64,000 nt of DNA from Lachnospiraceae bacterium (GTDB lineage Bacteria; Bacteroidota; Bacteroidia; Bacteroidales; UBA932), in contig CAVKBL010000009.1 of assembly GCA_963654805.1 (NCBI GenBank), positions 868 to 64,867 on the forward strand, in the 5' to 3' direction. A model generated the notes under the pieces. That model did not search any database and was not told where the DNA came from. It worked only from the letters and a program-made list of their open reading frames with translations. The translations under genes and the position numbers were made by a program. Every line of letters begins with the position of its first letter. Position 1 is the stretch's first letter. Of this stretch, positions 7,301-27,100 are shown piece by piece.

Positions 7301-7367
7301 TTTCTTCCTGCCGGACATAAATCCGAACATTTTTCATAAATTCGCTAGGAAAAAATCAAACATAACC

Positions 7368-8523: not shown

Positions 8524-9288
8524 ATGAAAGTAATAAACGAAAGAAGACAGGACATTATCAATACTATACTTAATCAGGGAGTGGTGAAAGTCTCACTTCT
8601 GGCCGAAAAGTACAATGTCACTCAGACAACGATACGCAAAGACCTTAACTATCTGGAGAAAAAGGGACTGCTGCACCGCTCATACGGTAATGCAGTGGCT
8701 GCCTCGGCTCCGGTAAAGGATATCTCGCTCGGCAAGAAAAAGCTCATTAACTTCAATGCCAAATTCCGCATCGCAAAAGCCGCCGCCGAACTGATAGAAG
8801 AGAACGACTCCATATTCATAGCTTCCGGCTCCACCATAGCCATCTTTGCGGACAATCTCAAACCTAAAGGCCGTCTCAATGTAGTCACCATCTCCGTGAA
8901 CATCTCCACGATGCTCGGTGAGAACGACAGCATATCGGTAATGCAGGTGGGAGGGATGCTCTACAGCAATACCCTTTCCGTCTACGGAAGCGATGCCATT
9001 CAATCCGTCAAAAACGTATTCTGTTCGAAACTTTACTTCGGTATCGATGGTATGTCACTCGAACACGGCATCACCTGCGCCACCAGAGAAGAAGCTGAAC
9101 TAACCCAAGAGATGATGCGCTCCGCAGAGAAAAAGATAGTTCTGTGCGATTCGAGCAAACTCGGGAAAAGAGGGTTTGCCCGAATCTCAGACATCTCCGA
9201 CATAGACATACTTATCACTGACTCCTCCTTTCCGCGAGAAGCCAAAGAGCAGTTTGAAAATGCCGGAGTGCAGATAATTATGGTCTAG
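8524..9288 (+). CDS. DeoR/GlpR (AgaR-like) transcriptional regulator
   Basis: ERRQDI...VTQTTIRKDL HTH, SGST, CDSSK, LITD. Confidence 0.93.
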   Translation: MKVINERRQDIINTILNQGVVKVSLLAEKYNVTQTTIRKDLNYLEKKGLLHRSYGNAVAASAPVKDISLGKKKLINFNAKFRIAKAAAELIEENDSIFIASGSTIAIFADNLKPKGRLNVVTISVNISTMLGENDSISVMQVGGMLYSNTLSVYGSDAIQSVKNVFCSKLYFGIDGMSLEHGITCATREEAELTQEMMRSAEKKIVLCDSSKLGKRGFARISDISDIDILITDSSFPREAKEQFENAGVQIIMV

Positions 9289-10129
9289 GCGAGTGATATT
9301 TCACAAGTCCTTCGATAGGAGACTTGATGATATTACCCAAACTCATACCGAACTCTGAAGCTACCTCGGCGAGAATGTCCCTATGACAATAGCCTACGGA
9401 GCCTACGCAATTGAGGCTATACTTTCTGTAATCAGGATAAAGAGTTACGATATTCCGGAAAAAATCCCTGAAAGCGCCTACCATCAGATCGTGGCAATAA
9501 GGGATAGTATGTCTATTTTGTCCCACCCATGTGCAGAACTGCGCGCAGTAGCGGTTAGCCTTAGGTTTACGATACACCTGCTCAATTATCTCTTCAGCGT
9601 TCTTGCCGACAAGAGCCTTGACCTTTTCATAAACATCCGAAGGCATGTTTTTTCTCGCATAATCACGCAGCAAAGTTTTTCCTATATATCCTCCACTGCC
9701 CTCGTCTCCCAAGATGAAACCCAGAGAATCGATATTGAGCGTCACCTGAGCTCCATCATAAAGGCAGCTGTTGGTACCCGTTCCAAGAATAGCTGCAAAA
9801 CCGGCGCTGTCACCAAGCAAGGCGCGTGCCGCTGCCAGTAAATCCATAGCTACAAACACCGTATCCGCATTAGGGAATACACCCAGGAGCGTCTCGCGCA
9901 TAAAATCATAGTCGAGTTCACTTACTCCGGCTCCATAAAAATACACTTCCTTTACTTCCCCCGGATTGAAACCGGCAGGAAGATTGGCACGGATGTCGCT
10001 TTGAATGTCAGGACCTGAAATAAAATTAGGATTATAGCCGAGGCTGTTGAAATATGCCGGAACGCCTCCTTCTTTCGGAATATAGGCCCAGTCTGTCTTG
10101 GTGGACCCGGAATCTGCAATCAGTATCAT
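9278..10129 (-). CDS. BadF/BcrAD-family N-acetylhexosamine kinase (MurK-like)
   Basis: MILIADSGSTKTDW, FYGAG, ILGTGTNS, LGFILGDEGSG. Confidence 0.85.
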   Translation of the reverse strand: MILIADSGSTKTDWAYIPKEGGVPAYFNSLGYNPNFISGPDIQSDIRANLPAGFNPGEVKEVYFYGAGVSELDYDFMRETLLGVFPNADTVFVAMDLLAAARALLGDSAGFAAILGTGTNSCLYDGAQVTLNIDSLGFILGDEGSGGYIGKTLLRDYARKNMPSDVYEKVKALVGKNAEEIIEQVYRKPKANRYCAQFCTWVGQNRHTIPYCHDLMVGAFRDFFRNIVTLYPDYRKYSLNCVGSVGYCHRDILAEVASEFGMSLGNIIKSPIEGLVKYHSPRP

Positions 10130-10185
10130 TTTGAAATTATTTTTAATTATTCTTGTCCGTAGCACAATAAAGGTGCCTGCAAAAC

Positions 10186-11388
10186 TTATTTTCTTATTCT
10201 ATAGCCGATGTAGGCGTAATAGAAAATAAAAAGATAGCACGGCAAGCATATCCAGTAGGCAGCCTGATTGCCTATCCCGTCCTTAAGAAACCCGAAAACG
10301 AGCGGAATCAGCGCACCTCCACCGAATGATGCTACCACCAGCGAAGATCCCACCTTTGTAAAACGTCCGAGATCCGTAATGGCCAACGGCCAGATGGCAG
10401 GATTCATCAGTGAACACGCCAGTGCGATGAAAGCCACGCACCAGATGGACACCCGGGCCGGAGTCAGGACAATGAGCAGCGTACCTGTCACCGCAAGCCA
10501 GCAGCATATACGCAGAGCCTTCACCTGTGACATAAAGCGTGGAATGAGAATAATTCCGAGCACATAACCTACCGCCATGCCTATACTTGGCCACAATGCA
10601 TATATCTGAGGATTAGGAAGATGCAGACAAGCGGCATAATCCACGACAGAAGACAGCGCAAGGGTCTCGACTCCGGTATAGAAGAACATGGCCAATGCCC
10701 CCAGAATAAGATGCGGGAACTGCCAGATGCTCGTCTTGCCGGCGGCGTAAGGACAATCCTCTGTCTCGCTTTCATCTTCACCGGCCGCCTTCACCTCCTG
10801 GAGAGGCGCGAAAAGAGTAAGAATGCCCAGAACCACGAAAATTCCGATTATTATTATGAAAGGCGTGGTGATATCGACAAGCTCCGCTTCATCTATGCTC
10901 TTGCCTATGACAGCCGCCAGAAAGACAGGTGCCGCAGCCCAAGCCATGGAATTGCAGATTCCCATCAGACTCATCCTCCTGGCGCCGCTCTCCATAGGTC
11001 CAAGTATGGTAACATATGGATTGATGGCCGTCTGCAGGACAGTATTGGCCACTCCGCTAAGAAACGAAGCGAAGATGAAAAGAGGAAGACTTTCCCCTTT
11101 GGCCGAAGGTATGAACAGGCAGAAAGCGATGGCGAAAAGGGCGAACGAGAGCGACATGGTCCGGCGGTATCCTATCCTGCCTATAATCTTGGCCGCAGGA
11201 TAACTGAACAGCAGAAAGGCGCAGAAAGTGGAGGCTATCAGAAGATACGACATCCCCGAAGACACTTCGAGAGTAGATTGGAGAAGCGGAATAAGATAAC
11301 TGTTGATGCCAAGGGCAAACCCCACGATAAAGAACATCGAACCTATTATCGCGAGAGGAAGGGCATAATTATGGGGTTTATTCATCAT
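10186..11388 (-). CDS. MFS sugar transporter (FucP/GluP/NagP family)
   Basis: About 12 hydrophobic segments; LQTAINPYVTILGP, YTGVE, PAIWPLAITDLG. Confidence 0.88.
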   Translation of the reverse strand: MMNKPHNYALPLAIIGSMFFIVGFALGINSYLIPLLQSTLEVSSGMSYLLIASTFCAFLLFSYPAAKIIGRIGYRRTMSLSFALFAIAFCLFIPSAKGESLPLFIFASFLSGVANTVLQTAINPYVTILGPMESGARRMSLMGICNSMAWAAAPVFLAAVIGKSIDEAELVDITTPFIIIIGIFVVLGILTLFAPLQEVKAAGEDESETEDCPYAAGKTSIWQFPHLILGALAMFFYTGVETLALSSVVDYAACLHLPNPQIYALWPSIGMAVGYVLGIILIPRFMSQVKALRICCWLAVTGTLLIVLTPARVSIWCVAFIALACSLMNPAIWPLAITDLGRFTKVGSSLVVASFGGGALIPLVFGFLKDGIGNQAAYWICLPCYLFIFYYAYIGYRIRK

Positions 11389-11407: not shown

Positions 11408-12502
11408 TCAGAACGGAAGTTCGGCATAGAGGCCGTTAAAAGTCTGCATCCCTTTCCATACAGGAGTGCCGAAAAGAGCGTTATCGTTGGTCGGGTCACA
11501 TATATACCACTGCCCATCCACATAAATGTGCGGAATGACATGCCCTATTACTGATGAAGAGAAATAGCACTGACCGTGAACATAACGGGCAGGTATACCG
11601 GCAGCGCGGCACATGGCCACCACGGCATGGGCCATATCACAACAGTTTCCCGCCTTGTCCTTTATCGTACCCACGGCGCCCTTCCTGGTATTATAATAGT
11701 TCTCCCACTCCCATTTGTCTCGGGCATATTCGAATATGGCTTCAGCCTTCTCTCTGTCGGCAGTCTTTCCGGAAATGGCCTCCTGCATGGCAGAAACTAC
11801 CGTCCCGTCATCAATCGGGCAATTTTTGGCGCTTCGAAGATAATCTGAACACCACACGCTCACGCTTTCAGGAAGAGCGCTATAATGACGATAATGATCC
11901 ATCACTCTTGCCACACAGACGAGTGCCTGAGCAAAAAGAAGATTTCCCACATACTGCTCACCTTCAGAAGTGTAATTGTACTCTACTGAAGAATCTCCGC
12001 TACGATCATCTTTCCACGTTCGCGTGCCGAAACAGCAATAATTAGGATACGCTCCTACCTTTGCGGCATAGGCATTCATCTTTTCAATGGCCCATTTCAG
12101 AGCCGGAAGAGAGATTTCGTCCTGTTCGAAAGTATTCCACGCCATGGACGAGGCGGAAGAATATTTCGGAATCTCCACATCACTGCATTCCTGCCAGCTG
12201 TCGGGATACTGCTCTATCAGCGAGATTATGGAACAGGCTGCTGAAAAATACTTGGCCTGACTATAATCTACGCCCTCCACATTGACGTAAAGGGGCATCT
12301 CATCCGTCTCGACAAAAGTCTCATAAGCCTGCGATACCGCCTGCAGGAACTCTCCATTCCATGAAGAAGGTGTAAATTCTTGGGGTGACGGTTCATTGCC
12401 TTTTCCGCTGTTTTTAGTGCATGCGCAACCGGCCAAGAGCAAAACGGCTGTCATAAGTATGGCATTGGCACAAAATACAGGATTAAAAAATCTATGATTC
12501 AT
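11408..12502 (-). CDS. Lipoprotein with three pseudomurein-binding-repeat-like units and a transglutaminase-like Cys peptidase domain (methanogen-type)
   Basis: Lipobox LAGC; repeats FVETDEMPLYVNVEG, MNAYAAKVGAYPNY, ARVMDHYRHYSALPESVSV; triad motifs GNCCD, GHV, DPT; AGIPARYVHG; C-terminus LYAELPF. Confidence 0.8.
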   Translation of the reverse strand: MNHRFFNPVFCANAILMTAVLLLAGCACTKNSGKGNEPSPQEFTPSSWNGEFLQAVSQAYETFVETDEMPLYVNVEGVDYSQAKYFSAACSIISLIEQYPDSWQECSDVEIPKYSSASSMAWNTFEQDEISLPALKWAIEKMNAYAAKVGAYPNYCCFGTRTWKDDRSGDSSVEYNYTSEGEQYVGNLLFAQALVCVARVMDHYRHYSALPESVSVWCSDYLRSAKNCPIDDGTVVSAMQEAISGKTADREKAEAIFEYARDKWEWENYYNTRKGAVGTIKDKAGNCCDMAHAVVAMCRAAGIPARYVHGQCYFSSSVIGHVIPHIYVDGQWYICDPTNDNALFGTPVWKGMQTFNGLYAELPF

Positions 12503-12578: not shown

Positions 12579-14939
12579 TCAGAAAGTCTCTCCCTGATGA
12601 TACATGTCGAAGTCGAACTGCTGATCCTTGAGCGCGGTGTAAACATTCTCGGTGATATCATTGTCGAGGATGTATTTGTAAGCTCTTGCAAGAATGTAAA
12701 GCTCACGTACCGGTGAGATGAGGCCCACATAACCGTCAAGAACTATGGTACTTCCCGTATCGGTACCGAACTGCTGGAAGTTGCCTATCTTTCCGAGAGG
12801 AGAAGAACACCAGCCATTCTTCACGAACGCACGTCCAAGATGTATGGAAGTAGCCTTCACGATGAACTTAAGACCTACTGTAGAGATAGCTTCTCCATTA
12901 TATGTAACCAGAGAATTGCCGCTGTTATCATATTCATACCACGGAGTGACACCCCAATCACATCCCTTCGTAGCTGAAGGGATCTTGTCGCTAAGCTTGC
13001 ATCCGTCACCGTAAGTAAATTCATCGTTACGTTTCTTCATGGTCTCGATGAAACCTTCACCTTCTTCCGTTACAAGATTAAGGAACGCGCGAACCGCTAT
13101 TTCCCACGCCTGTGCCGAGGTATATTCCGTATCGCCTACCTTGACTGACCATACGCCCCACTTAGGGTCATACTGGTTACCGTCATGACCATAAGGGTTC
13201 CCCGACGGCTCGCCGATAGGAATGAAATGAACATTCTCCCATGCGCTGTTGTTGTCAGTACAATGAACGCCTTCGGCATCCACTTTACCCATACATTCTT
13301 CCCAAAGAGGAAGACACTTTACGAATTCGATGGCGAAATCACGGATGGTAGCTTCGGAAGGCACAACATATTCTGCCTGTTTAACGACTATTTCAAGACC
13401 GTCCGTAACATTTCCGCCCTTGATGATCACCTTGCCTTCACGAGCTTCTCCTGTATTGGACTTCACGCTGACAGTGATTTTTGCAGGAGATGCAGCTTCG
13501 CCTGATACAGGAGAAACTGTAATCCAGTCTGCATTTGCTTCAGCTGTCCAAGCTTTCTTGGCGATAAATGATGCGTCCGTGCTCTTGGCGTCAGCCGAAA
13601 ATTCAAGAGTCTTGGTCTGAAGTTCTATATCCGGCATTTCAACACCATAGAGGTCATAGTCCAATTTAAGATTCTTGACTGCGTCATAGACATTTTCCGT
13701 GATATTGTTCTTGAGAAGATAATCATAGAAACGGCAGAGAACGAGGAACGCACGCATAGAACTGATATATCCGTGGTAAGGTTCCATAACGACAGAGCTG
13801 TCAGGATCTTTTTCAAAATTAAGGAAATTACCTATCTTGCCCAGTTCCGGAGCTCTCTTGAGGAACCAAGGAATAGCACGTACCATAAACGCGATATCGC
13901 ACGGATTTTCTTCAGAGAAATTCATAGGCCCGATTTCTCCGTCATTCGTGCTTTCATACCAAGGATACAATCCCCAGACAGCCCATTCTTCGGTAGCAGG
14001 AATCTTTTCATTAAGCGCCTTTCCGTTACCGAGGGAATGTACAGGAGTATTACGTTCCACTTGCTTGGTTACAGATCCTTCAGGTGTTACAAGATCAAGG
14101 AAGCCTTTGGCTGCCACCACGAAGCATTCTGCGGCAGTATATTCGGTACCTGCCACGGTAATGGTGTGATATGGCTGATATTTGGCGTCATACTGATCCT
14201 TGCCGTCAGCATAAGCTCCACCGCTGTGAGGAATAGGAATGAAATGGACATTCTCCCATACATCACCATTGTCAGTACAGTGGCTGGCGTCGGCGCTGAC
14301 ATTACCGACAGTCTTTTCCCAAATATCAAGATAAGACACCAGAGCCTCGGCGAAGCCCTTCAGCGTAGCTGCTGAGCCCAGATAATCGGTAGATACCGTC
14401 GCAGGAAGTTTGCCGTCTTTCTTATATAGAGCAAGAGTACGGGCAAGAGTAACGGTAGCACGGTTGGTAGAGAAAGCGATGGCGGAGCCGTCCTTATAGA
14501 ACACGGTCTGGTTAGGAATCTGTCCTTTCTCTTTAACGACTGCAAGAATATTGGCGGCTATAGCCTGCACACTCTCATCTCCGGTTACGGCGATGGTCTC
14601 AGCCTCATAACTGTCTCTGTCAGGATGTTCGGCAGCCTTGTAATTGAAAACTTCTACGTCGCCGGAAGTCGTTCCTGCGATAATATTGGATACTACCTTA
14701 CACAGAGCATACTGATACTGAGGCTGTGTAAGTGTCACATCCCCTACATTAAGAGAAGACGGGATGGCCGTAGTGGTCTCCCACTCAGAATACATAGTCG
14801 AAAAGGCTTCGACCAGAGTCTGCTGCGCGATGGTGGCAACAGGTTTAACATCAGATTCCGGTTTCTTTTCTTTATCGCAGGCTGCAAAAAGAGCAACTGC
14901 AGAAACCAGCACGATGAGATAATTCCAAATTTTTCTCAT
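12579..14939 (-). CDS. Surface lipoprotein: PMBR-like repeats plus two copies of an unknown ~250-aa domain separated by a BACON domain (putative surface glycan-binding protein)
   Basis: Lipobox FAAC; WETTTAIPSSLNVG, VKEKGQIPNQTVF, ARTLALYKKDGKLPATVS; duplicated HCTDN..WENVHFIPI; BACON WTAEANADWITVSPVSG...NTGEAREG. Confidence 0.72.
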   Translation of the reverse strand: MRKIWNYLIVLVSAVALFAACDKEKKPESDVKPVATIAQQTLVEAFSTMYSEWETTTAIPSSLNVGDVTLTQPQYQYALCKVVSNIIAGTTSGDVEVFNYKAAEHPDRDSYEAETIAVTGDESVQAIAANILAVVKEKGQIPNQTVFYKDGSAIAFSTNRATVTLARTLALYKKDGKLPATVSTDYLGSAATLKGFAEALVSYLDIWEKTVGNVSADASHCTDNGDVWENVHFIPIPHSGGAYADGKDQYDAKYQPYHTITVAGTEYTAAECFVVAAKGFLDLVTPEGSVTKQVERNTPVHSLGNGKALNEKIPATEEWAVWGLYPWYESTNDGEIGPMNFSEENPCDIAFMVRAIPWFLKRAPELGKIGNFLNFEKDPDSSVVMEPYHGYISSMRAFLVLCRFYDYLLKNNITENVYDAVKNLKLDYDLYGVEMPDIELQTKTLEFSADAKSTDASFIAKKAWTAEANADWITVSPVSGEAASPAKITVSVKSNTGEAREGKVIIKGGNVTDGLEIVVKQAEYVVPSEATIRDFAIEFVKCLPLWEECMGKVDAEGVHCTDNNSAWENVHFIPIGEPSGNPYGHDGNQYDPKWGVWSVKVGDTEYTSAQAWEIAVRAFLNLVTEEGEGFIETMKKRNDEFTYGDGCKLSDKIPSATKGCDWGVTPWYEYDNSGNSLVTYNGEAISTVGLKFIVKATSIHLGRAFVKNGWCSSPLGKIGNFQQFGTDTGSTIVLDGYVGLISPVRELYILARAYKYILDNDITENVYTALKDQQFDFDMYHQGETF

Positions 14940-14965: not shown

Positions 14966-16315
14966 TTATTGATTGAAATATTCCTTGATATCGGGAAACT
15001 CTCCGAGACCGTAGCGGAAAAGGACTATCCCGGCAGCCTTCGAATCCTTATAGACATTGCAGTCCTTTAGTATTCCTGCCGCATCCATAGGAGTAAGGCC
15101 GTCGTCAGTGCCTTTATAAGTGGTTGTTCCGGCCCAACATTCCGCTCCGTGAGCATTATCGGCAAATCTGTTCGCCACGTTCCGGCAAGCCTCATCGCTA
15201 TAGCCGTAAGAGTAGCGATAGATCATAGGCATCATAATATGGATATAACGTGTCATCTGATCTATGTTCTGCCCATAATAATAGCCGTTCGGAGTCTCAT
15301 CAGGCATAAGAGCGGCAGAAGTAACGAGCCCTTCGTCATAACTGTCACAAAGCTCACGAAGTTCCCTGCAGCAACGCGTTACAGCACCCACTGCATTGAC
15401 TTCAGCAGAAGGGTTATGCTTGGGAGCCGTACCTCCGAAACGGATATAATCCAGATGAAGGCCCTTTACGCCGTATTCTTCGATATAAGATTGGGCATTG
15501 GAGACTATCCTCTCGAACACCTCTTCTTTATAACGGTTGTTCTCGTCGTCTATGGGATTGATCCAACCTCCATTATAAAAGCATTGTATCCACGCATGCA
15601 CGGCAATGCCTTCTCTTTCAGCCGCCTCCAGAAACTTTATCGTAGTCTTTTTTGAGGACTGATTGAAAGCGGCATAATTGAGAATTATGTGATCATAGCC
15701 TTTGGCCTTGAGAGACTTCAGCTCTGCACAATCATCCGCCATAAGGCTCGGGATATGACTGCTCCAGGTCCATACGCCGGCACGGACAGTACCTTCAAGG
15801 CTGAATATGGCATTCTCAGCCGCTTTGCTGGAATAAGTAAGAGCACGCCACTGCGCTCCGCCGTCAGGAATTCTCTGATAACTGCCACGTGCCGTCAACG
15901 CATGGGCTTTCGTAAATTCTGCGTCTCTCGTGAATTCATCTATGGCCTTGCCCGTAGCGCTTGCGGCGAGTTTGAGCGTAAAGTCTGCGTCCGATGACAT
16001 GCCGGTAAGCAGCGTCTCATCTTCAGTAGAAAGTACCAGACGTTCTCCTGCGGCAAGGGATGTGCCTTCCGGAGCGGTATAAATGCACTTGCGTGAAAAA
16101 TACTGGTCGCTGAGATATAGTCCGACCCCCGACAGATCGACGCTTCCGGAGCCGGAGTTCAGAAGTTCCACCCAGCTGTTGGCGTCAGTGATCTCGTCAT
16201 GGGCGGCTATCTCGTTAATGACCAGGCCCTCCCATTTGGCGATATCGTTCTTCGAATCCTGACCGCAGGCTGCAAGCAGAAGTACAGGGAGAAGATATGA
16301 TAGGTTCCTGCGCAT
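14966..16315 (-). CDS. Lipoprotein: lamin-tail-like domain plus putative TIM-barrel glycoside hydrolase (GHL10/DUF4015-like, methanogen-type)
   Basis: Lipobox LAAC; LVINEI..WVELLN (LTD); VHAWIQCFY, GLHLDYIRF, SAALMP, YYYGQ, MPMIY, GIVLFRYGL. Confidence 0.78.
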   Translation of the reverse strand: MRRNLSYLLPVLLLAACGQDSKNDIAKWEGLVINEIAAHDEITDANSWVELLNSGSGSVDLSGVGLYLSDQYFSRKCIYTAPEGTSLAAGERLVLSTEDETLLTGMSSDADFTLKLAASATGKAIDEFTRDAEFTKAHALTARGSYQRIPDGGAQWRALTYSSKAAENAIFSLEGTVRAGVWTWSSHIPSLMADDCAELKSLKAKGYDHIILNYAAFNQSSKKTTIKFLEAAEREGIAVHAWIQCFYNGGWINPIDDENNRYKEEVFERIVSNAQSYIEEYGVKGLHLDYIRFGGTAPKHNPSAEVNAVGAVTRCCRELRELCDSYDEGLVTSAALMPDETPNGYYYGQNIDQMTRYIHIMMPMIYRYSYGYSDEACRNVANRFADNAHGAECWAGTTTYKGTDDGLTPMDAAGILKDCNVYKDSKAAGIVLFRYGLGEFPDIKEYFNQ

Positions 16316-16318
16316 AAC

Positions 16319-17149
16319 TTAAGCCTTTATGACGCCTTCCTCGCGAAGCCCTTTTTCAGCCTCGGTCAATCCGCCGTATTTCTTTATCGCCGCTTCGCAC
16401 ACTTCGTAGGTAAGAGCCGGATTACGCTCCACCATAGTACGTGTAAGACGGTCGATGACCTTGTTGTTGATAAGATGGGCGTGAACCATCCTGTTGCCCT
16501 CGACTCTGCCGAGGCGGCACATTATGGTGGTGCTTATCATGTCACAGATAAGCTTCTGTGAAGTGCCGGACTTCATTCGCGTGCTTCCCGTTATGAATTC
16601 AGGACCGGTGATGACCTCTACAGGATAATCGGAATAATCAGAAATGGGGGATCCCGGGTTATTGACGAAAGAGCCTGTAGGAATACCATGTTCGCGACAT
16701 GCTTTGAGCGTGGCCAGCACATAAGGAGTGTTACCGCTCGCGGAGATGCCCACCACGATATCTTTCGGACAGATGTTCTTCTCCTGCAGAAGCCTCCATC
16801 CTTCCTGTACATCATCTTCCATCTCTTCCAGGTCGAGAACCAGATTCTCCACCCCGCCTGCAAGAATGCACTGAATCATATCAGGAGACACACCATAAGT
16901 ATTCGGAATCTCCAGCATATCCAGAACGGCGAGCTTGCCGCCTGTTCCGGCCCCGCAATAAAACATTCTTCCTCCCTCGCGCAACTGCCCTTCAATGGCG
17001 CTTACCAGCTTTTCAAGTTCCGGAAGCACCTTCTCTATCGCAAGAGGGACCTTCTTGTCCTCCTCATTAATTTCGCGCAACAGTTCCGCTACGCTTTTTT
17101 TCTCCAAATGGTCGTGCAATGACGGCTGTTCTGTAAGTCTTAATGCCAT
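16319..17149 (-). CDS. murQ: MurQ-family sugar-phosphate etherase (divergent)
   Basis: TEQ, GGRMFYCGAGTGG, VVGISASGNTPYV, GPEFITGSTRMKSGTSQKL, RLGRVEGNRMV. Confidence 0.85.
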   Translation of the reverse strand: MALRLTEQPSLHDHLEKKSVAELLREINEEDKKVPLAIEKVLPELEKLVSAIEGQLREGGRMFYCGAGTGGKLAVLDMLEIPNTYGVSPDMIQCILAGGVENLVLDLEEMEDDVQEGWRLLQEKNICPKDIVVGISASGNTPYVLATLKACREHGIPTGSFVNNPGSPISDYSDYPVEVITGPEFITGSTRMKSGTSQKLICDMISTTIMCRLGRVEGNRMVHAHLINNKVIDRLTRTMVERNPALTYEVCEAAIKKYGGLTEAEKGLREEGVIKA

Positions 17150-17161: not shown

Positions 17162-18994
17162 TTAAAATCTTTTACTTTTAATATCTCCTATCCGCTTGCC
17201 TCCCCTTACAAGCACCGCTTTCACTTCCTGCGAGCGGTTGATGACGAAAGGCTGAGTGTAAAGCGCCGATTCGGGCCCCGGGATGTTCCCGTCGAGGGTG
17301 TAACGTATCTCAGAATCCGGAAGGTCGGACGTGATGGTAACCACCTTGTCATATTCGGTGTCCTTGTGAAACTCTATATATGGGCTGAAGAAGTTGCGGC
17401 AAGCCCCGACTCCGAGAGCATCGAGCCTGTCGAAATGTGTTTCGAGTCTTCGCGTGAAGCCGTCCCAATCTTTGGGAGCCGTCGTCCATCCGCTCTCGGC
17501 GATGGCGCACATTCTCGGCCATGCCATATACTCGACCCTACCCGGAGTAGGCATATATTCCGTCCACACGCAGCCTTCAACTCCGAGTATATACCTCTGC
17601 TCTTCAGCACTCAATACGTCCGGCACAGGATTATATTCATACATGGTGCGCAGCATCGTCGGTCCTCCCATAGCGAGAGGCTCGCTGTCGGGGTCTCCCT
17701 GCCAATAGTCAAGATAATATTTCGGATACGGCGCCATGACTGCATAATGATGCATCTTGGCGGCCTTTATCCCGCCTTCCTCTCCAAGCCAGGACATCAC
17801 CTGAGCATTAGGAGCAAGACCTCCCTGAAGGATTTCGTCCCAACCTATGATCTCGCGGCCGCGGGAATTGAGGTATTTTTCTATCCGCTGCACGAACCAA
17901 CTCTGCAATTCAAACTCATCCTTAAGGCCAAGCCTGCGGATAAGAGCCTGACAGTGCGGGCATTTCTTCCAGCTGGCCTTGGGACATTCGTCCCCTCCGA
18001 TATGAATCACCTTGGAAGGGAAAAGTTCCATCACCTCGTCCAGCACATCTTCCAAAAACTTAAATGTCTCCTCCTTAGGACAATATACCTGACGGAAAAT
18101 GCCCCATTTGGTGGCGGTCTCGTAATGGTCCTCAAGTCCGCAGCTGAGCTCCGGATAGCAGGCTATAGCAGCCAGGGCGTGCCCCGGCATCTCTATCTCC
18201 GGGATAATGGTCACATAACGCTGCGCGGCATATTCCACAAGTGAGCGGACCTGCTCCTGCGTATAATATCCTCCATAAGGCTTTCCGTCATATATGCCGG
18301 AAGCGAGCGAACCGATCACGGTCTCGCGACGCCATTGGCCCTTTTCTGTCAGAAGCGGGTATTTCTTGATCTCCAATCGCCACCCCTGGTCTTCGGTCAG
18401 ATGCCAATGAAACCTGTTGACCTTATGAAGAGCCATAAGGTCTATATACCTTTTCAAAAAATCAATATCGAAGAAGTGCAGGCAACAGTCAAGATGCATT
18501 CCCCGATAAGCGAATCGCGGCGAGTCTTCTATCGTGCAGCACGGCACGGTCCAAGCCCTGACGGACTTTCTCACGGAAGAAAAAATATCCGTATCCAAGA
18601 GCTGCAACAGTGTCTGAAGCCCATAAAATGCTCCGGCACCGTCGCCATATTCGATGACGATGCGGCCCGGCTCCACATGCAGGGCATAAGCCTCGGAAGG
18701 AAAACCCGCATCAAGAAAGAAGATACCTTCATTCTGCGAGAAATCCACATCTGCGATCTTGAGGGAGAAGCCTGATACGGTCTGCAGGCGCTCGTTGAGA
18801 AAGCCTGCGGTACGCAGAATCTCCTCCCCGGCGGCATATATCACGGTATTCTTCGTGATGCTGAAATAACCTTCCCCGCGCTGCACATGCGAAGGCTGAG
18901 GAATGACGCAGATCGCCTCCGCCTCCCGGTTCCCGGACTGTCTGCATCCGAGAACCAGGGCGAGGACTATAATTATACTAACCACTCGTCTCAT
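17162..18994 (-). CDS. GH20 beta-N-acetylhexosaminidase (lipoprotein)
   Basis: DSPRFAYRGMHLD, FHWHLTEDQGWR, IHIGGDE catalytic motif, C-terminal Fn3-associated domain (IRYTLDG). Confidence 0.93.
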   Translation of the reverse strand: MRRVVSIIIVLALVLGCRQSGNREAEAICVIPQPSHVQRGEGYFSITKNTVIYAAGEEILRTAGFLNERLQTVSGFSLKIADVDFSQNEGIFFLDAGFPSEAYALHVEPGRIVIEYGDGAGAFYGLQTLLQLLDTDIFSSVRKSVRAWTVPCCTIEDSPRFAYRGMHLDCCLHFFDIDFLKRYIDLMALHKVNRFHWHLTEDQGWRLEIKKYPLLTEKGQWRRETVIGSLASGIYDGKPYGGYYTQEQVRSLVEYAAQRYVTIIPEIEMPGHALAAIACYPELSCGLEDHYETATKWGIFRQVYCPKEETFKFLEDVLDEVMELFPSKVIHIGGDECPKASWKKCPHCQALIRRLGLKDEFELQSWFVQRIEKYLNSRGREIIGWDEILQGGLAPNAQVMSWLGEEGGIKAAKMHHYAVMAPYPKYYLDYWQGDPDSEPLAMGGPTMLRTMYEYNPVPDVLSAEEQRYILGVEGCVWTEYMPTPGRVEYMAWPRMCAIAESGWTTAPKDWDGFTRRLETHFDRLDALGVGACRNFFSPYIEFHKDTEYDKVVTITSDLPDSEIRYTLDGNIPGPESALYTQPFVINRSQEVKAVLVRGGKRIGDIKSKRF

Positions 18995-21900
18995 TAAAAC
19001 GGTATTTCTACAAGTTCACCGACCTTTTCTCCATTATATTTTATTCCCTGCGCTTTCACGACGGTTCCCTTTTCAGGAACGAAAGGACGGGTGAATATAG
19101 GAGATGAGAGTTCAGGAATACTGCCGTCCACAGTATAGTGTATGGCCGCTTCCGGATAGTCAAGCATCATATCCGCATCTTCCGGACGCGTGAGGTTGAC
19201 GCTGTCGTAATCGAAAATCACGTTCCAATATGCCTTGGAATATCCTACTCTTTCGGCCTCTATCCGCTGCATTTCCTTTTCCATTCTGCATCGGAAAGAC
19301 CACCAGTCCTTGTTGGAGCGAAGCGTCCAGCCGCTTTCTGCCAATGCCGAGGTGCGAGGGAATGCATTATATTCCACTTTACCGCTTTCCGGTGCATATT
19401 CTCCCCACAGACAGCCTTCTACACCTATGATGTATTTCTTGCTGAGCTCCGGAAGAGAATCGACCGCCGGATAGTAATTGGCTATCTTTTTCAGAGGCAG
19501 GAAGCGCGGCTGATTGGCCGGCTCACGCAGAGGCCCCTCCTGATAATAGTTGAAATAGCACCAGCGGTCAGGCGAGAGTATTACTCTATGTCCCGAACGT
19601 ATGCCTTTGGCCGCAGGACCGTGTCCGCGATAAGACTGCGCTATCATCTGTCCGTTGACTCCCTTACCGTCGAGGATCTCATCCCAGCCTATGACCTGCT
19701 TGCCATGAGCACGCAGATATTCACTTATACGGTTCACGAAATAGGACTGAACCTCGTCGTAACTCTTGAGACCGAGCTGTCTCATTATCTTACGGCAATA
19801 AGGGCTGTTTCTCCACGCATCCTGCGGACATTCATCTCCTCCTATGTGATAATATTTGGACGGGAAAAGCGGAAGAAGTTCCGCGAAGACGTCTTCGAGA
19901 AAAGTGAGCGTGGCTTCGCTCGGACAATACACGTCCTTCTTGACTCCCCAGTCGGTAGATACGCTATAAGTCCTGGTCGTATCGCAGGAGAATCTCGGAT
20001 AAGCGGCAAGAGCGGCCGTTGAATGCCCCGGAATCTCTATCTCCGGAACCACCTCTATCTGACGCAGACGCGCATATTCCACGACCTCACGCACATCATC
20101 CTGCGTATAGAATCCGCCGTGAGGCTTTCCATCAGGATTTTTCCCGTTATAATCGGAGGTAAACGGACGTTTCGAGCCTATCTCCGTAAGAAGCGGATAT
20201 TTCTTGATCTCTATTCTCCAGCCCTGATCTTCCGTCAGATGCCAATGGAATTTGTTCAGCTTACGGATAGACATATAGTCTATGAACTCCTTGACAAAAT
20301 CTTTGGAATAAAAATATCTTCCGCAGTCAAGCATCATCGAGCGGTACGGCAGTGCCGGGCGGTCGCTGATACGGCAGCATGGAGCGCTCCATTTCACGCC
20401 GTGAACTCTGTCCGGAGAATAAATCTGAGCCGGCAGCAGCTGTAGAAGAGATTGCAGACCATAGAATGCTCCTGCAGAAGTCGAAGCCTCTATCTTCACT
20501 CTCTTGGGGCTTACTTCCATTCTGTACTCCTCCTCTCCGAGACCTTCCACCTGACGCAGCAGAATATCTGACCCGCGGCCTTTGGAAAGATCTATCCCGG
20601 TGGAAGCCTGCACTTTCTCCATGAAGACGACGGAAGCCTGAGCAAAGGTAGGCTCAACGCTTTCGACACTGAGGTGAGAGCCGGATTTGAGAGTAAATTC
20701 CCCGGGGAGGGGCTCCAGCGAGGCCGGCTCGGGAATTATCCCGTAACAACGCCAATCCTTCTGTGGTTCAGCATTTTCCGAGCGGATCGCATCGGAGAGT
20801 ATCTTCTTCACGCCTTCGGCATAGACAGCCGGAGCCGCCGGAGAAATAGGATAAGGGGCCTTTATGTAAATATGCATCTGTTCAGTCTCATACTCATAGC
20901 CCTTGCGTACCTTATATGCACGCTCCGAAGGCAGGTATGAGTTCTGTCCGTTAGTATATCCGGCGAAAAATATGGTCTTCTGCGGGAAAGCCTCACGAGC
21001 CTCGGACTGATATTCACAGAACGGCTCACCGTCCGAGAAAAAGAACAGCACACCGTCAAGATCCACCACGTGCAGACTGTAGCGCAACTTGCTAGGAACT
21101 GGTCCGGCTTTGAAGCGTTCGAGGATTTCGCCTTCCCATCTGCGTACATCATCACCGAAAGTGGACGACACGGCAGAAGAACAGCGCGCAAGCGAATCGG
21201 CATGATGACGCACGTCCGCAGCGGTTATCTCATCTTTCTGATAAGGAAGATCCACCTTTTCATTTATAAGACGAAGCAGTCCGCGGCTTTTGACCGCAGT
21301 GAACTGCACACCGGAAAGGTCATCGGCAAGTTCACGCCCGCAAGTTTCGGCATAAGCTGCGTCCTGCGGGCCGCGGGCAGGGTCCATGTTGCCGGCAGCA
21401 CCGGTAAGGAAGAACACCTCACCGCCCCATTTTTCGGAAAGAATGCCGGAGCATACTCCGGGATAGTCCGAAGACACGGCCTTGCTGCGAGGACCCATAC
21501 ATACCGGATGACAAGCAAGATTGACTATGCTTACCGTAGGAGCACCCTTGCGGATAAACCGTGCCACATACACATCGTGGTCCACAGGACCGCCTTTTTC
21601 GCATCTGTTCGCGTTGATGAATGTCCTCCCCTTCCCTGTCTGCAGGGTAAAAGGCTTGAACTCAGCATCGGATACGATGGTCTTGACGGCATTGTCCACC
21701 AAAGTCTCCATCATACGGAGCTTCCACGCCAGATTGGTCCCCCCGGCCGTAACGGACGCGCCTCCGCTACGTGGAGCGGAGTGCGTGTGGATGTTATGCA
21801 TCAATATCCTTCCCAGATCAAGGCCCGACCTTTCGGCTATCATAGTCCTTATGGTATCCGAGATGGAAGGTGATATCTCCATCAGATCATTGGAGATGAT

Positions 21901-22128
21901 GCACACCTTCTGACCTTCGGCGTCCCTTATTACAAGACAGTGAGAGCGCAGATTCTGATGCAGTCCGTCAGAAAGGCCCTGTCTTGCCGCAAATCCAGCC
22001 AGCACGACGTGCTCATCCAGTGTCGTGGAGATGTCACACGACCGGTAGTTCATCTCCAGGCGGGAGGATTGGCATCCCACCGCCAGGAAAAGTACAGCTA
22101 CATATTTTATATTTTTCAAAAAATTCAT
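18994..22128 (-). CDS. Neutral/alkaline-ceramidase-like amidohydrolase fused to GH20 hexosaminidase
   Basis: N-terminal LAGF..R, HNIHTHSAP, NLACHP, VSSDYPG, TGAAGNMDP, GEPF, YLPS; C-terminal FHWHLTEDQGWR and YHIGGDE. Confidence 0.85.
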   Translation of the reverse strand: MNFLKNIKYVAVLFLAVGCQSSRLEMNYRSCDISTTLDEHVVLAGFAARQGLSDGLHQNLRSHCLVIRDAEGQKVCIISNDLMEISPSISDTIRTMIAERSGLDLGRILMHNIHTHSAPRSGGASVTAGGTNLAWKLRMMETLVDNAVKTIVSDAEFKPFTLQTGKGRTFINANRCEKGGPVDHDVYVARFIRKGAPTVSIVNLACHPVCMGPRSKAVSSDYPGVCSGILSEKWGGEVFFLTGAAGNMDPARGPQDAAYAETCGRELADDLSGVQFTAVKSRGLLRLINEKVDLPYQKDEITAADVRHHADSLARCSSAVSSTFGDDVRRWEGEILERFKAGPVPSKLRYSLHVVDLDGVLFFFSDGEPFCEYQSEAREAFPQKTIFFAGYTNGQNSYLPSERAYKVRKGYEYETEQMHIYIKAPYPISPAAPAVYAEGVKKILSDAIRSENAEPQKDWRCYGIIPEPASLEPLPGEFTLKSGSHLSVESVEPTFAQASVVFMEKVQASTGIDLSKGRGSDILLRQVEGLGEEEYRMEVSPKRVKIEASTSAGAFYGLQSLLQLLPAQIYSPDRVHGVKWSAPCCRISDRPALPYRSMMLDCGRYFYSKDFVKEFIDYMSIRKLNKFHWHLTEDQGWRIEIKKYPLLTEIGSKRPFTSDYNGKNPDGKPHGGFYTQDDVREVVEYARLRQIEVVPEIEIPGHSTAALAAYPRFSCDTTRTYSVSTDWGVKKDVYCPSEATLTFLEDVFAELLPLFPSKYYHIGGDECPQDAWRNSPYCRKIMRQLGLKSYDEVQSYFVNRISEYLRAHGKQVIGWDEILDGKGVNGQMIAQSYRGHGPAAKGIRSGHRVILSPDRWCYFNYYQEGPLREPANQPRFLPLKKIANYYPAVDSLPELSKKYIIGVEGCLWGEYAPESGKVEYNAFPRTSALAESGWTLRSNKDWWSFRCRMEKEMQRIEAERVGYSKAYWNVIFDYDSVNLTRPEDADMMLDYPEAAIHYTVDGSIPELSSPIFTRPFVPEKGTVVKAQGIKYNGEKVGELVEIPF

Positions 22129-22149: not shown

Positions 22150-24147
22150 CTAGTATCCGGGATTCTGAACCAGAGTACCGTTGGATTTGGTCATCTCATT
22201 GGCAGGGATTGGCATAAGATAATTAGGCCATTCTCCATTTTTCTTGTAAAAATGCTTCTGGGTAGGAGGGATGTTCAGGCAGCAGTCGCCGTAATCCACC
22301 CAATAGTCTTTCCCGAGCCAACTGTATTTGATGCAGGAGCCCTGTATCTGAACAGCACCTTCGGAGTCTATCTGCGCCTGCTCGAACATGTCCCTGCCGT
22401 TGGCAGTTATGTAATCCGTCCTTTCCTTGGAATTGAGCCAATAGTAGCAGGTATTGTTCAGGCTCTCGTCATAGGTGCGCGCCACACGGTAGATGGTCTC
22501 CGTAGATGAACCGTTCTGCAGTATCATGGTCCTCATACCTATGATAGGGATATTCTCATAGAATGGAGCCGTCTTCCACCGGCGGACATCGAAGTAGCGG
22601 AAGGTCTCGAATGCAAGTTCCACCCTGCGTTCATTGACAAGCCTGTCCCAAAGAGACTCGCCGCTTTCAGTTACTTCCGGCATACCGGCACGTGCGCGTA
22701 TCTTGTTGATATACTGGCGGCACAAAGCCTCGTCACCTGTCATATACGCACACTCAGCATAATTGAGATACATCTCGGCCAATCTGAACCAAGGATAAAG
22801 AAGCGAACCCGTCTCCGATTCGGTTATAGGAGAAGTAGGGATATACCACTTCATCATCTCAAGCCCGGTGGCGCCGGTGGCCGCCCAAAGATGCTTGGCC
22901 TTGGATGTATAGGTAGGCTCCGTATTGCCTTTTGCAAAATCACTTTTCTGTTTGCCTTCGTAGTAGAGCGCCAGATCAAGCGTATTCACATGATAACCCG
23001 AGCCGTCGGTGTTAGGATATTCGCCTCCGTGATAAGCGATGCTCTGATAAAAACGCGGGTCGCGTCCGTCAAAAGGCTTCTGCGGATCATATCCTGAACC
23101 ATCCTCGAAGATTTTTTTGCCGTTGGCCATCTCGTAATCTATGAACATAGCCTGCGTAGGCTCGAAAGCAGTCCATCCGTTGAAATACACTATGGAATAA
23201 AGAAGCTGGGCTTTCTTCATCGAGTTGTCATTGGCATCGGAATTTGAAATGAAATACTTGGCCCAGATAAGTTCCGGAGAATCGGTGTTTTTCCACATCC
23301 CGTCATAAGTCTTGTCCAGACTGTATGCAGCATCCACGTCGGCCCTGTCGATGATGAGTTTGGTAGCGTCAAGAGCACGTTTCCATTTGTCTGCGCTATA
23401 TGTCCCGCGAAAGATTCCGCCTTCCGGACGGTCAGGATCGTTGAAAAGAGGCGACGCGGCCACGAGAGTAAGACGGCTGCGCAGCGCGAGAACCACATCC
23501 TTGTTGATTCTACCCTTGAGTGCGTTCTCTTTAGAAGGAAGAAGCTGATAAGCCTTGTCCAAGTCTTCAAGAATGAAATCCACACAGTCATCGAAATTCG
23601 CCCTTTGCGCGTCATAGACATCCGTCAGATTATATGCCTTGGTGACGATAGGCACACCGGCATAACGCTCTATGAGATTGAAATATGTCCAGGCACGAAG
23701 AAAATACACCTCACCCTTAAGTCTGGTCAGATCATCCTGAGAGATCTTGGTGCCCTTTTCGTCCACATATGCCAGAAAATAATTTATCCTGTATATGCGC
23801 TCGTAAGCTCGGTTCCAGATGTTCAGTATGGTAGTTCTGGTACTATGTGCCGGACCGCCTTCGCTCATATACATGATATTGTCCGGAGTCATGGTGCCTG
23901 AAGCTATGTATCTGGTGGAAGTGCCGCCGTAGCGGAAATATCCCTCGTCCGTAATGCACCCTATGTTTCCCTCCTGGAAAGGATCGGGAAGTACGGTGTA
24001 TATGGCGTTGATATAATTTTCTGCCAATGCGGCGCTGTTGAAGACAGCATCTTCCGAAAGTTTGTCCAGAGGAGTCTTGTCCAGAAAACCGTCGTTACAC
24101 GAAAGTGCGAGCGAAGCAGTGGCAATTATTGCAAATATCTTTTTCAT
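22150..24147 (-). CDS. susD: SusD/RagB family lipoprotein
   Basis: LSCNDGFLDKTP, GEVYFLRAW.YF, RDPRF, FRLAEMYLNYAE, NERRVELAFE, QNPGY. Confidence 0.93.
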   Translation of the reverse strand: MKKIFAIIATASLALSCNDGFLDKTPLDKLSEDAVFNSAALAENYINAIYTVLPDPFQEGNIGCITDEGYFRYGGTSTRYIASGTMTPDNIMYMSEGGPAHSTRTTILNIWNRAYERIYRINYFLAYVDEKGTKISQDDLTRLKGEVYFLRAWTYFNLIERYAGVPIVTKAYNLTDVYDAQRANFDDCVDFILEDLDKAYQLLPSKENALKGRINKDVVLALRSRLTLVAASPLFNDPDRPEGGIFRGTYSADKWKRALDATKLIIDRADVDAAYSLDKTYDGMWKNTDSPELIWAKYFISNSDANDNSMKKAQLLYSIVYFNGWTAFEPTQAMFIDYEMANGKKIFEDGSGYDPQKPFDGRDPRFYQSIAYHGGEYPNTDGSGYHVNTLDLALYYEGKQKSDFAKGNTEPTYTSKAKHLWAATGATGLEMMKWYIPTSPITESETGSLLYPWFRLAEMYLNYAECAYMTGDEALCRQYINKIRARAGMPEVTESGESLWDRLVNERRVELAFETFRYFDVRRWKTAPFYENIPIIGMRTMILQNGSSTETIYRVARTYDESLNNTCYYWLNSKERTDYITANGRDMFEQAQIDSEGAVQIQGSCIKYSWLGKDYWVDYGDCCLNIPPTQKHFYKKNGEWPNYLMPIPANEMTKSNGTLVQNPGY

Positions 24148-24159: not shown

Positions 24160-27100
24160 TTAGAAAGTCAGTTTAACACCGGTATTGAAAATTCTCATCT
24201 GCGGATAAGTCTGATATGACTCGTCACTTGTCTCCGGATCGACGTTCTTCAGAGGAGAGAATGTAAGAAGGTTATAACCTGCTATATAGAAGCGGAGATT
24301 CTTGATGTTCAGCTTCTGTGTAAGGAAACTGTTGGTAAGGTTGTATCCTATCTCCACGTTCTTGAGTCGGAGGAAAGATGCGTCACGATAATAGAATGAT
24401 GAACTGTTCACTCCGCCGTTGCTGACATTGGACCCAAGCCTAGGATAGTTGGAGTCCGTATTCGTAAGTGTCCAAGCCTTCTCGGCGGCTTCCTTCTCCA
24501 CGTTTCCTGAAAGAGGATCCATCAGAGGAGCATAGTAGAAGCGTGCCCTGGCCTGTCCCTGGAAAAGCACTGAGAAATCCAGATTCTTCCAATGTCCGTC
24601 GAAAGTGAGGCCATAGACTATCTCAGGAACGGCCGTAAGATCGCACCTCTTTCTGTCGTAAGAAGTTATCTTTCCGTCGCCGTCAAGATCCGCGAATATG
24701 AAATCTCCCAGGGTGGCACCCGACATCTGAGGATATTTCTCAAGGTCTTCCTGAGTCTTGTTTATGCCAATTACCTGATAATAAAGCTGAGAGCCCATAG
24801 GATGACCGGTAAGGTTCATATATTCGTGACCTTCGCCCCAAGGGGTCTCGTCCATATATTTGATACGGTTACGGGCGAACATGAAGTTCCCGCTGAGATG
24901 ATAGGCGAAATCGCTGCCGTGAACTTTGTTCTCATGATGAAGCTGGAGTTCGAAACCCTTGTTGGTCACGATGCCTATGTTTTCGTCCGGAAGGCTGTTG
25001 GTAAGTCCCGTATAATATGGAATGGAAGCATTTCTGGTACAGAGAATATTGGAACGTTCGGTGCTGAAATATTCAACTTCCCAGCCGAAAAGACCATTGT
25101 TCACGCTTCCGTCCAATCCAAGATTCCAAGTCTCGGCCACTTCCCAGGTAATGTTCTGGTTAGGCACTTTGCCTGGAATGATGAAACTTACGTCCTTGTC
25201 GTCGAGACGGAGCTTATATGAAGAACCTGAGGTATATTCATAGGTGGTCATATACTGGAAAGCGTCCACCTGATCGTTACCCTGCTGCCCGTAAGAGCCG
25301 CGGAGCTTGAGGTTGGTAAGCCAAGGAACGTTCTCTTTCACGAACGATTCCTCTGAAAGTCTCCATCCTAAAGACACGCCCGGGAAGAAACCCCAGCGCT
25401 TGTCTGAAGGGAAATTCTCCGATCCGTCAAAACGTCCTATGAACTGGAACATATAGCGGCTTTTCCAGTCATAGCCTATACGGGTGAAATAGCTTCGGCG
25501 TGCAGTCTCGGTAGCGTAACCTCCTATGCTGTACCAGCTCTTGTCGGCAGAACCGGCGAAGAATTCGTCGAGTATGTCGGAATCGTATTTGTTGATGCCG
25601 GCACGGAAATAGTCAAGCCTGTAGGAAGCCTGTTCGAAACCGAGAAGACCAGTGAAGTGATGTCCGTCGAAATCACGGTCATAGTTAAGGTTTACGTTGA
25701 CGGTCGTCTTGCCGCTGTTACGCTGATATTCGTGAAGTACAGGGGTGCTCCAGTAAGATGCGGTCTTCTCCTCGAACGTCTCGGTTACCTCGTCGTAAGA
25801 CCAGTACTGCCAGTTCTTCTGCCAGTTCTTCTGGAAATTACCTATGACATCGTATGCCAGGGTTCCGTTGACGGACAGACCCTTGGTAAGAGCGCCGAGA
25901 TCCCAGTTCAGGGTGAAGGTGGAGTTGATGGTGTTGATGGTGGTCCTGTCATATCCGGTGAGGTCCTGCACTAGAACTGCAGGATTGGACCCTCCGCGAA
26001 GATATCCGTTAGGATAATATGCGGCTCCCGTAGGTTTCAGGCGGGTGGCTATGTAGAAAATACCGTAGCTGTCAGAAGGGAAAGCCGAGTAGTTCTTATG
26101 CTGCTGACGGGCATTCAGGTTGACACCGAGTTTAAGGGCGTCTGTGACCTTGATGTCGATGTTGGTACGGATGTTATACTGGTCGTAATTGGTGGCGGAC
26201 TTCTTATATATACCGTCCTGATACTGTCCGTTAAGCTCGACAAAGTATGCTACATTCTTCCCCCCCCCACTGAAATTCACGCCGTATTTGTGCTGCAGTG
26301 AGACAGGCTTGATAATCTCGTCGAACCAGTTCGTGTTAGGATAATTTATGAGATCATCCCCGTCACGGTAGTGCGCAAGCTGTGTCTCATTATATACAGG
26401 AGCGGCACCGGTAATAGCGAGCTCGGCGTTATATGCGTTAGTGTAAAGAACGGCATCCGCCATCTCCACCAGTCGAGTAGGCTGCTGAAGACCGAGATCG
26501 TAATTGAAAGTGACAGTCGTGCCTTCACCGAACTGTCCGCGCTTGGTGGTGACAAGTATGACTCCGTTAGCGGAGCGTGCACCATAGATGGCACCTGACG
26601 CATCCTTAAGGACATTGACGCTCTCGATCTCATCTCCGGACAGACGGCTGAACTCCTCGTTGCTTCTCGGCACACCGTCTATTACTATAAGAGGGCTGTT
26701 GTCTCCCAAAGTGCTGCGACCACGGATGAACATGGTAGCATCATCCTTTCCAGGTTCACCTGTACGATTACTGATAATGACACCCGACAGACGTCCTGCA
26801 AGACCCTGCGAGATGTTCACTCCGGAATTCTTCGTAAGTTCACGCCCGGAAGTCTGGGTAACGGAACCGGTAAGAGTGAGCTTGCTCTGCGTACCGTAAC
26901 CGACTACCACGGCATCACTCAAGAAAGTGGATTCAGTAACAAGGACAAAGTTCACGGTCTGCCTCCCCTCTACGGCCTGCTCCTGATCCTCAAAACCGAG
27001 AAGGCTGGCTACAAGCACGGCTCCTTCCGGCACTGTAAGGGTATAACGGCCGTCTATATCTGTCATAGCACTGGACATGTTCGTGGCGGCCTGCCCTTTT

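Follow-up and report, generated by a model that had tools for sequence, protein, structure and literature searches.

Archaeal peptidoglycan (pseudomurein) is resistant to the wall hydrolases of bacteria, lysozyme among them (PMC4592898), and the pseudomurein-lytic enzymes found in our literature search have methanogens or their viruses as sources. One recombinant archaeal peptidoglycan hydrolase, ArmA, has been used on the wall of Methanobrevibacter smithii (bioRxiv 10.64898/2026.10.03.756221, where "Smith et al. in revision" is given as the source). An enzyme of the name mentioned in the initial annotation of the DNA studied here therefore exists, digesting M. smithii peptidoglycan; the available parts of PMC13642728, PMC13585281 and PMC12996149 do not mention it. 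Furthermore, one M. smithii adhesin-like protein is tabulated with a "putative glycosyl hydrolase domain" (PMC11532034), which is the Pfam description of DUF4015. Here we describe a predicted glycoside hydrolase (GH) lipoprotein encoded at 14966..16315 on the minus strand of a 64,000-nucleotide stretch of DNA from a gut Bacteroidales bacterium (the window; contig CAVKBL010000009.1, positions 868 to 64,867). Sequence comparisons suggest that it is probably the surface endo-glycanase of a polysaccharide utilization locus (PUL) for pseudomurein. Neither such a PUL nor bacterial pseudomurein digestion was described in the literature that we searched, most subscription journals being outside its coverage.

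The open reading frame (ORF) starts with ATG and encodes 449 amino acids, with a lipobox (LAAC; Cys17 is invariant in 40 of 40 aligned homologues) and a lamin-tail domain (LTD; Pfam, residues 30-129, E 5.8e-9, cut-off passed). Both features had been read from the letters in the initial annotation together with six motifs, and all of them could be located in the translation (VHAWIQCFYNG at residues 239-249, GLHLDYIRF at 285-293, SAALMP at 333-338, YYYGQ at 345-349, MPMIY at 362-366 and LFRYGL at 432-437). Pfam DUF4015 (PF13200) aligns with residues 260-373 at 21.9 bits, below the gathering cut-off of 27, although many homologues pass this cut-off. The Pfam scan gave no GH18 and no GHL10 (PF02638) match at E<=0.1, and the PDB sequence search no relative below E 0.12. 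NCBIfam and PHROGs hold no family for this protein or for its pseudomurein-binding-like and transglutaminase-type neighbours (see below), and no match to the GH was found among INPHARED phages. The protein is no scored member of DUF4015, GHL10 or GH18. Membership in GH18 was dropped because GLHLDYIR lacks the Glu of the catalytic signature, which we take to be DxxDxDxE, and because of the missing Pfam match; membership in GHL10 was dropped on the latter ground.

The closest relatives found outside the Bacteroidota are methanogen wall-associated proteins and, likely, proteins of methanogen viruses, as judged from sequence searches. Among 1,531 longer candidate proteins, two matched the GH, and both consist of immunoglobulin (Ig) repeats, DUF4015, pseudomurein-binding repeats (PMBR) and a transglutaminase domain. 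BLASTP aligned the GH lipoprotein with a PMBR- and transglutaminase-bearing protein over 299 amino acids (30% identity, E 6e-45). The six-motif string is not a chance likeness. This protein belongs to a Methanobrevibacter-named family: a search with one Ig-DUF4015-PMBR-transglutaminase protein returned 287 proteins, and the names among the 120 listed were all Methanobrevibacter. A profile of 33 bacterial GH domains was then run against 1.84 billion representatives (clustered at 50% identity) and matched 245 proteins at E<=1e-30; the results given below for this profile rest on the best 150 of them. By tree, these were 99 methanogen/virus-type proteins, 40 Bacteroidota lipoproteins and 3 others, with 8 fragments dropped. 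Among all proteins compared, 9 of 172 with <200 profile positions were left out, as were the weak viral loci L081 and L082. The names seen on non-bacterial members, 20 further representatives having been looked up, all belong to the Methanobacteriales (Methanobrevibacter, Methanobacterium, Methanothermobacter, Methanoflexus, Methanobacteriaceae), and one bacterial cluster is named Bacteroidetes bacterium ADurb.Bin174. In the methanogen proteins the GH domain is fused to PMBR and often also to transglutaminase, and identity between the window protein and the archaeal/viral-type set has a median of 31% and does not exceed 36%. The homology to Methanobrevibacter GH-PMBR-transglutaminase proteins proposed in the initial annotation was thus confirmed. 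We take these proteins to be probably the family of M. smithii ArmA. To our knowledge, ArmA homologues have been reported as restricted to wall-bearing archaea, and the bacterial GH members would be an exception.

In IMG/VR, the GH domain occurs in 13 loci, 11 of them strong (L070-L080), and is fused to PMBR in 6 of the 9 ORFs scanned, from which we infer that the hosts are methanogens. Several of these ORFs follow tail-like genes and have a C-terminus resembling a C39 peptidase by eye; one representative protein combines a prophage-tail domain, the GH and Peptidase_C39_2. No PHROG was found for the GH part of the two viral proteins scanned. The viral GH-PMBR fusions are candidate glycan-cutting lysins of methanogen viruses. 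Note also that three GH members (P0296, P0323, P0374) fall outside both main groups: the first is a type IX secretion system protein in which the GH domain occurs twice, the second is secreted and may be eukaryotic, and the third is a lipoprotein.

The barrel carries a candidate catalytic residue common to both groups. In the alignment, Asp289 is kept in 54 of 55 bacterial and 121 of 121 archaeal/viral-type domains. G285, R292, Y347 and Y366 are invariant in the same two sets, and W242, Y290, M337, M364, Y400, F433 and R434 are nearly so. An AlphaFold2 model made from a 40-sequence alignment (mean pLDDT 91, pTM 0.88) consists of a beta-sandwich followed by an alternating (beta/alpha)8 barrel (~179-449), and places Asp289 directly after strand 285-288. 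VIA-align ranked Cwp19 (Z 22.5, rmsd 3.5, 257 residues aligned, 16% identity) and the GH153 domain of PgaB (Z 22.4, 9% identity) in a tie for first, with GH18 at Z ~20; a search of BFVD returned generic barrels alone (8-14% identity). The domain thus shares with the GHL10/GH153/GH18 barrel group the (beta/alpha)8 fold and an acidic residue after strand 4, at Z 20-22.5. As far as a model can tell, the common fold supports cleavage of an N-acetylhexosamine (HexNAc) polymer, and it points to no substrate. Cwp19 of C. difficile acts on bacterial peptidoglycan as a lytic transglycosylase (PMC6016235), and the activity of PgaB GH153 depends on a single essential Asp (PMC5933820).

Two genes directly downstream, for a 786-aa and a 364-aa predicted lipoprotein, appear by sequence similarity to supply the remaining parts of the methanogen GH proteins. 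A hidden Markov model (HMM) for the pseudomurein-binding (PMB) module, built from 175 methanogen PMB-bearing units, matched only these two among 4,886 ORFs of the genome (E 7.5e-13 for the 786-aa and 7.9e-6 for the 364-aa lipoprotein; next E 0.37), and it matched 58 of 63 related loci vs 0 of 8 sister loci without the GH. The 364-aa lipoprotein aligns with the PMBR-transglutaminase end of two methanogen-type proteins (E 2e-27 and 6e-30), the alignment extending to their last residues, i.e., to the same C-terminal end. Its triad (C288, H321, D336) is intact in 43 of 43 copies, and no Pfam Peptidase_C71 or PMBR match was obtained for it. Its catalytic domain scores 67-128 bits (up to 48% identity) against 108 methanogen-type proteins, a set preselected for the GH domain, whereas no score above 47 bits was reached in 300 Bacteroidota genomes; by these scores it is nearer to the methanogen copies than to the sampled Bacteroidota copies. 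As two adjoining genes carry the PMB-like and transglutaminase parts, the case for a pseudomurein-directed enzyme is stronger than it was at first noted. Concerning the 786-aa lipoprotein, its ~250-aa repeat (aa ~190-434 and 527-786; 1-5 copies per related locus) gives a confident four-helix model (pLDDT 95) with no Foldseek PDB match at E<=0.001. We make no claim that this repeat is a relative of the PMB unit, the likeness being weak (HHalign 34%, E 4e-4; controls 0.1-0.2%).

Table 1. Features of the predicted pseudomurein PUL in the window
Feature	Positions	Strand	Remarks
GH lipoprotein	14966..16315	-	LTD aa 30-129 and DUF4015/GHL-type (beta/alpha)8 barrel aa ~176-449
Codon of Asp289 (HLDY), predicted catalytic residue	15449..15451	-	End of barrel strand 4; near-invariant Asp
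786-aa predicted lipoprotein	12579..14939	-	PMB-like module aa ~40-185, two ~250-aa repeat domains, BACON; predicted surface wall-binding
364-aa predicted lipoprotein	11408..12502	-	Weak PMB-like region and transglutaminase core, Cys-His-Asp; predicted Pei-like isopeptidase
Divergent MurQ-family etherase paralogue	16319..17149	-	NF003915 passed; active-site motifs altered
GH20 beta-hexosaminidase	17162..18994	-	Pfam GH20 2e-119
Ceramidase-like amidase domain fused to GH20 beta-hexosaminidase	18994..22128	-	Pfam Ceramidase_alk 4e-10, GH20 5e-111
SusD-like lipoprotein	22150..24147	-	Pfam SusD_RagB 7e-51
SusC-like TonB-dependent transporter	24160..27276	-	Pfam Plug, CarbopepD_reg_2
MFS sugar transporter, NagP/GluP-like	10186..11388	-	
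BadF/BcrAD-family sugar kinase	9278..10132	-	35% identity with the second copy in the genome, which adjoins canonical murQ
DeoR-family regulator, convergent	8524..9288	+	Locus-linked in several relatives

The placement of the GH gene in a PUL proved right, as it lies within a SusC/SusD operon. Ten co-oriented and closely spaced genes run from susC to the BadF kinase gene, the GH lipoprotein gene being the sixth (Table 1); with adjacent susC and susD, co-oriented carbohydrate-active genes and conservation between genomes, the locus has the make-up of a PUL. A scan of GTDB genomes found 63 loci with the GH (46-81% identity), recorded as Bacteroidota in 53 cases (many from rumen, also from human and chicken gut), as "bacterium" in 3 and as Firmicutes or Flexilinea in 7. 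The last seven (L001-L003, L009-L011, L014) are probably mislabelled bins, because they hold a SusC/SusD-type cluster of Bacteroidales type. Among loci with at least 6 kb downstream (n=44), the gene for the 786-aa PMB protein was present in 42 and that for the transglutaminase in 39; among those with at least 8 kb upstream (n=44), SusC/SusD were present in 41 and the MurQ-like gene in 40. A second GH copy occurs in 26 of the 63 loci. The GH is patchily distributed: among 300 genomes of the family, 10 gave full matches, as did 1 of 400 of the order (from the same genus), and the phylum sample gave weak partial matches only (E>=3e-7, 28 of 400 genomes). No lysozyme, amidase or NagZ family was matched by Pfam in the 14 locus proteins scanned.

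Several further genes in the window may be mentioned. A GH109-like oxidoreductase gene (27500-28930, plus strand) diverges from susC; none was seen in the 63 loci, most flanks being too short. An APH-family kinase gene near deoR (7287-8456, plus strand) recurs in 4 of 63 loci. A second SusC/SusD-type cluster (35524-53958, minus strand; labels by motif inspection) contains many uncharacterised lipoproteins, among them a subtilisin-like one (38982-40988).

As the nearest relatives of the GH found outside the Bacteroidota are wall-associated proteins of methanogens and, likely, of their viruses, the bacterium likely uses the PUL to break down archaeal wall as food, the GH likely working, as its sequence suggests, like the glycan-cutting half of methanogen wall hydrolases. 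In the proposed pathway, the 786-aa lipoprotein and SusD would bind sacculus material of lysed, possibly live, methanogens. The GH would then cut the HexNAc-containing backbone internally via Asp289, and its transglutaminase-type neighbour would cut the peptide cross-links in the manner of PeiW/PeiP. The fragments would enter through SusC; the GH20 enzymes would take off terminal N-acetylglucosamine (GlcNAc) or N-acetylgalactosamine, and the ceramidase-like domain an amide-linked peptide or acyl group. The final stage would consist of monosaccharide uptake by the MFS transporter and of the conversion of a 3-O-substituted HexNAc into GlcNAc-6-phosphate by the kinase together with the divergent MurQ. 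The substrate of this last step is the weakest link of the mechanism.

The MurQ paralogue differs from its canonical counterparts. It scores 240.7 with the TIGR00274 equivalog model, below the cut-off of 302, and 291.6 with NF003915, above the cut-off of 168. The canonical combination GTSGR/DASE-PPT/EGAED is not retained: GTGG replaces GTSG and PNT replaces PPT in all 59 locus copies (with some genomes represented twice), and two Glu positions, presumably catalytic, are kept. These changes suggest another 3-O-substituted sugar as substrate. The same genome encodes on another contig (C6:16691-22822) a second murQ with canonical motifs together with a BadF kinase, and symporter-like and NamZ-like genes (the last two by eye). 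Ordinary N-acetylmuramic acid (MurNAc) salvage is therefore covered elsewhere, by a separate canonical murK-murQ pair and a symporter gene. A second, more distant murQ copy is present in 3 of 5 relatives, with canonical motifs in 2.

Sister loci without the GH combine the MurQ paralogue and kinase with ceramidase-like/GH20 genes, beside genes for GH18-GHL10, AAT-C1B peptidase or GH89; their SusC/SusD are unrelated to the window pair, and none of the 8 stretches has a PMB-unit match. The MurQ-kinase module is a reusable set for wall-like HexNAc glycans, and specificity is therefore to be read from the surface enzymes. The divergent MurQ had been considered as proof of an archaeal sugar; this idea was dropped after the paralogue turned up in sister PULs. 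One form of sister PUL with the divergent MurQ module (L106, L107, L108, L112, L113) is possibly aimed at modified bacterial wall or spore cortex; in L106, the one scanned, there are in addition two fusion proteins (GH18-GHL10 and AAT/C1B peptidase), a ceramidase-GH20-GH20 protein and an FGase-like one. In another locus (L110:471-15820), the MurQ module stands beside two GH89 alpha-N-acetylglucosaminidases.

A different Bacteroidota PUL is found on two metagenome contigs of digester origin (L067, L068). It contains an LTD-LTD-GH homologue, GHL10, two GH20s and genes of ceramidase-like and heparinase-like type, and its SusC/SusD are unrelated to the window pair (24-25% identity). It appears that in this lineage a second PUL arose independently around this hydrolase.

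Several results weigh against pseudomurein as the substrate. Classical pseudomurein contains N-acetyltalosaminuronic acid and has neither MurNAc nor a lactyl ether, and it offers no obvious substrate for a 6-kinase and an etherase. In the ArmA study, this structure was reportedly revised by adding a sugar with a succinyl group, a feature that might fit an amidase and an etherase paralogue. The MurQ paralogue occurs in 16 of 300 genomes of the family, 7 of the 16 without the GH; since the MurQ/kinase/GH20/ceramidase-like module also exists in PULs without the GH, it is no specific pointer to pseudomurein. The digester PUL has the GH with no PMB-unit and no transglutaminase match, the best structural match, Cwp19, acts on bacterial peptidoglycan, and Pfam PMBR matched nothing in the whole genome (the control likewise gave no match). 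The preselection of the methanogen transglutaminase set has to be counted here as well, and the label "ArmA-like" for the GH would refer to its architecture.

Some of these results lead to the alternative that the PUL harvests bacterial, possibly modified, peptidoglycan, the methanogen-related GH and peptidase having been turned to MurNAc walls or cutting both. The operon indeed combines a MurQ-family gene with one for a BadF kinase resembling MurK, as in the MurNAc pair of Tannerella (PMC5790795), and the closest solved fold is that of Cwp19. Sister PULs join the same cytoplasmic module to GH18-GHL10 and peptidases. Bacterial wall is, moreover, far more abundant than archaeal wall in gut and rumen. 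However, the GH is 13-16% identical to Cwp19, whereas its identity reaches 36% with methanogen domains that share its cleft residues, and each of three neighbouring surface genes matches some part of these methanogen proteins. The MurQ paralogue itself lies below the equivalog cut-off with motifs changed in every locus copy, and a canonical murK-murQ exists separately. On balance, we regard this explanation as unlikely.

Still less probable is another HexNAc-rich target (a secondary wall polysaccharide of archaea, e.g., methanochondroitin; poly-N-acetylglucosamine; a chitin-like or a host glycan), with the methanogen likeness reflecting ancestry only. In structure, PgaB GH153 and GH18 chitinases rank level or almost level with Cwp19, the two GH20s are generic, and the digester PUL joins the GH to a heparinase-like lyase with no PMB or transglutaminase match; however, such a target leaves unexplained the intact Pei-like triad and the PMB-like modules beside the GH. 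That the main role of the three surface proteins is adhesion to methanogens (e.g., for hydrogen transfer), the barrel being a binding module with little or no catalysis, is very improbable: the methanogen homologues do bear an adhesin-like annotation (PMC11532034) and the barrel has a single fully invariant acidic residue, but PgaB GH153 works with one essential Asp (PMC5933820), and the operon is shared with an importer, exo-glycosidases and catabolic enzymes.

Pseudomurein thus remains the probable target, which raises the question of where the surface genes came from. In a 56-row tree with GHL10-like outgroups, bacterial rows fell within a clade with Methanobrevibacter-type rows (SH-aLRT 98). 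GHL10-like proteins of Bacteroidota gave partial matches only (E>=3e-7) and lie outside the GH family in the tree. A single archaeal and viral clade was not rejected by the approximately unbiased test (p 0.165); an archaea-to-bacteria transfer is therefore not shown, and we claim no donor. Tentatively, and at slightly less than even chances, gut and rumen Bacteroidales may have acquired from Methanobacteriales the means of wall remodelling (glycan hydrolase, pseudomurein-binding module and isopeptidase), distributed these parts over separate surface lipoproteins and dedicated a PUL to them, the MurQ paralogue catabolising an archaea-specific wall sugar. Beside these loci, a stand-alone 297-aa Bacteroidales GH is encoded outside a PUL (L114:178-1068, minus strand); its motifs are more methanogen-like by look, and it stands apart from the other bacterial rows in the tree, possibly as a separate acquisition.

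If the PUL does act on pseudomurein, it would identify bacterial recyclers of methanogen walls in rumen, gut and digesters, and under the capture scenario Bacteroidales would be bacterial consumers, perhaps active lysers, of methanogens. The glycan hydrolase, compact and single-domain, and the peptidase could be put to use in the chemistry of archaeal walls and would be candidates in methane mitigation; through the kinase, amidase and MurQ paralogue, the catabolism of the archaeal wall sugar would become directly accessible. The reverse case is known, as archaea carry bacterial wall hydrolases (PMC12352652), and the PUL would then be the mirror image of archaea attacking bacterial walls.

Among described systems, the operon murT-murK-murQ of Tannerella forsythia (PMC5790795) resembles the PUL in combining a BadF-family kinase, a MurQ-family gene and a transporter. 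However, it uses a sodium symporter, whereas the window PUL has an MFS transporter, a MurQ below the equivalog cut-off and a full SusC/SusD surround; the Tannerella-like MurNAc set of this genome is the one on the other contig. Cwp19 (GHL10) and PgaB's C-terminal domain (GH153) have the same barrel as the GH (Z 22.4-22.5) and act on HexNAc polymers, but are only 8-16% identical to it, and the GH lipoprotein has no GHL10 Pfam match. PeiW and PeiP (PMC4592898), like the 364-aa lipoprotein, have a binding module followed by a Cys-His-Asp transglutaminase-type domain. They are viral lysins, whereas the 364-aa protein is a predicted bacterial lipoprotein that lacks their Pfam matches (Peptidase_C71, PMBR), and they are peptidases, whereas the GH is a predicted glycan hydrolase. 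The Ig-GH(DUF4015)-PMBR-transglutaminase proteins of Methanobacteriales share the barrel with the GH, including D289, R292, Y347, Y366 and the cleft aromatics. In these archaea, the PMB and transglutaminase parts belong to one membrane-anchored polypeptide, which is thought to remodel the cell's own wall and has archaeal Ig repeats. In the window bacterium, which has no pseudomurein, LTD and BACON domains stand in place of these repeats, the PMB and transglutaminase parts are split over two adjacent genes, and the whole is laid out as three predicted lipoproteins coupled to an importer.

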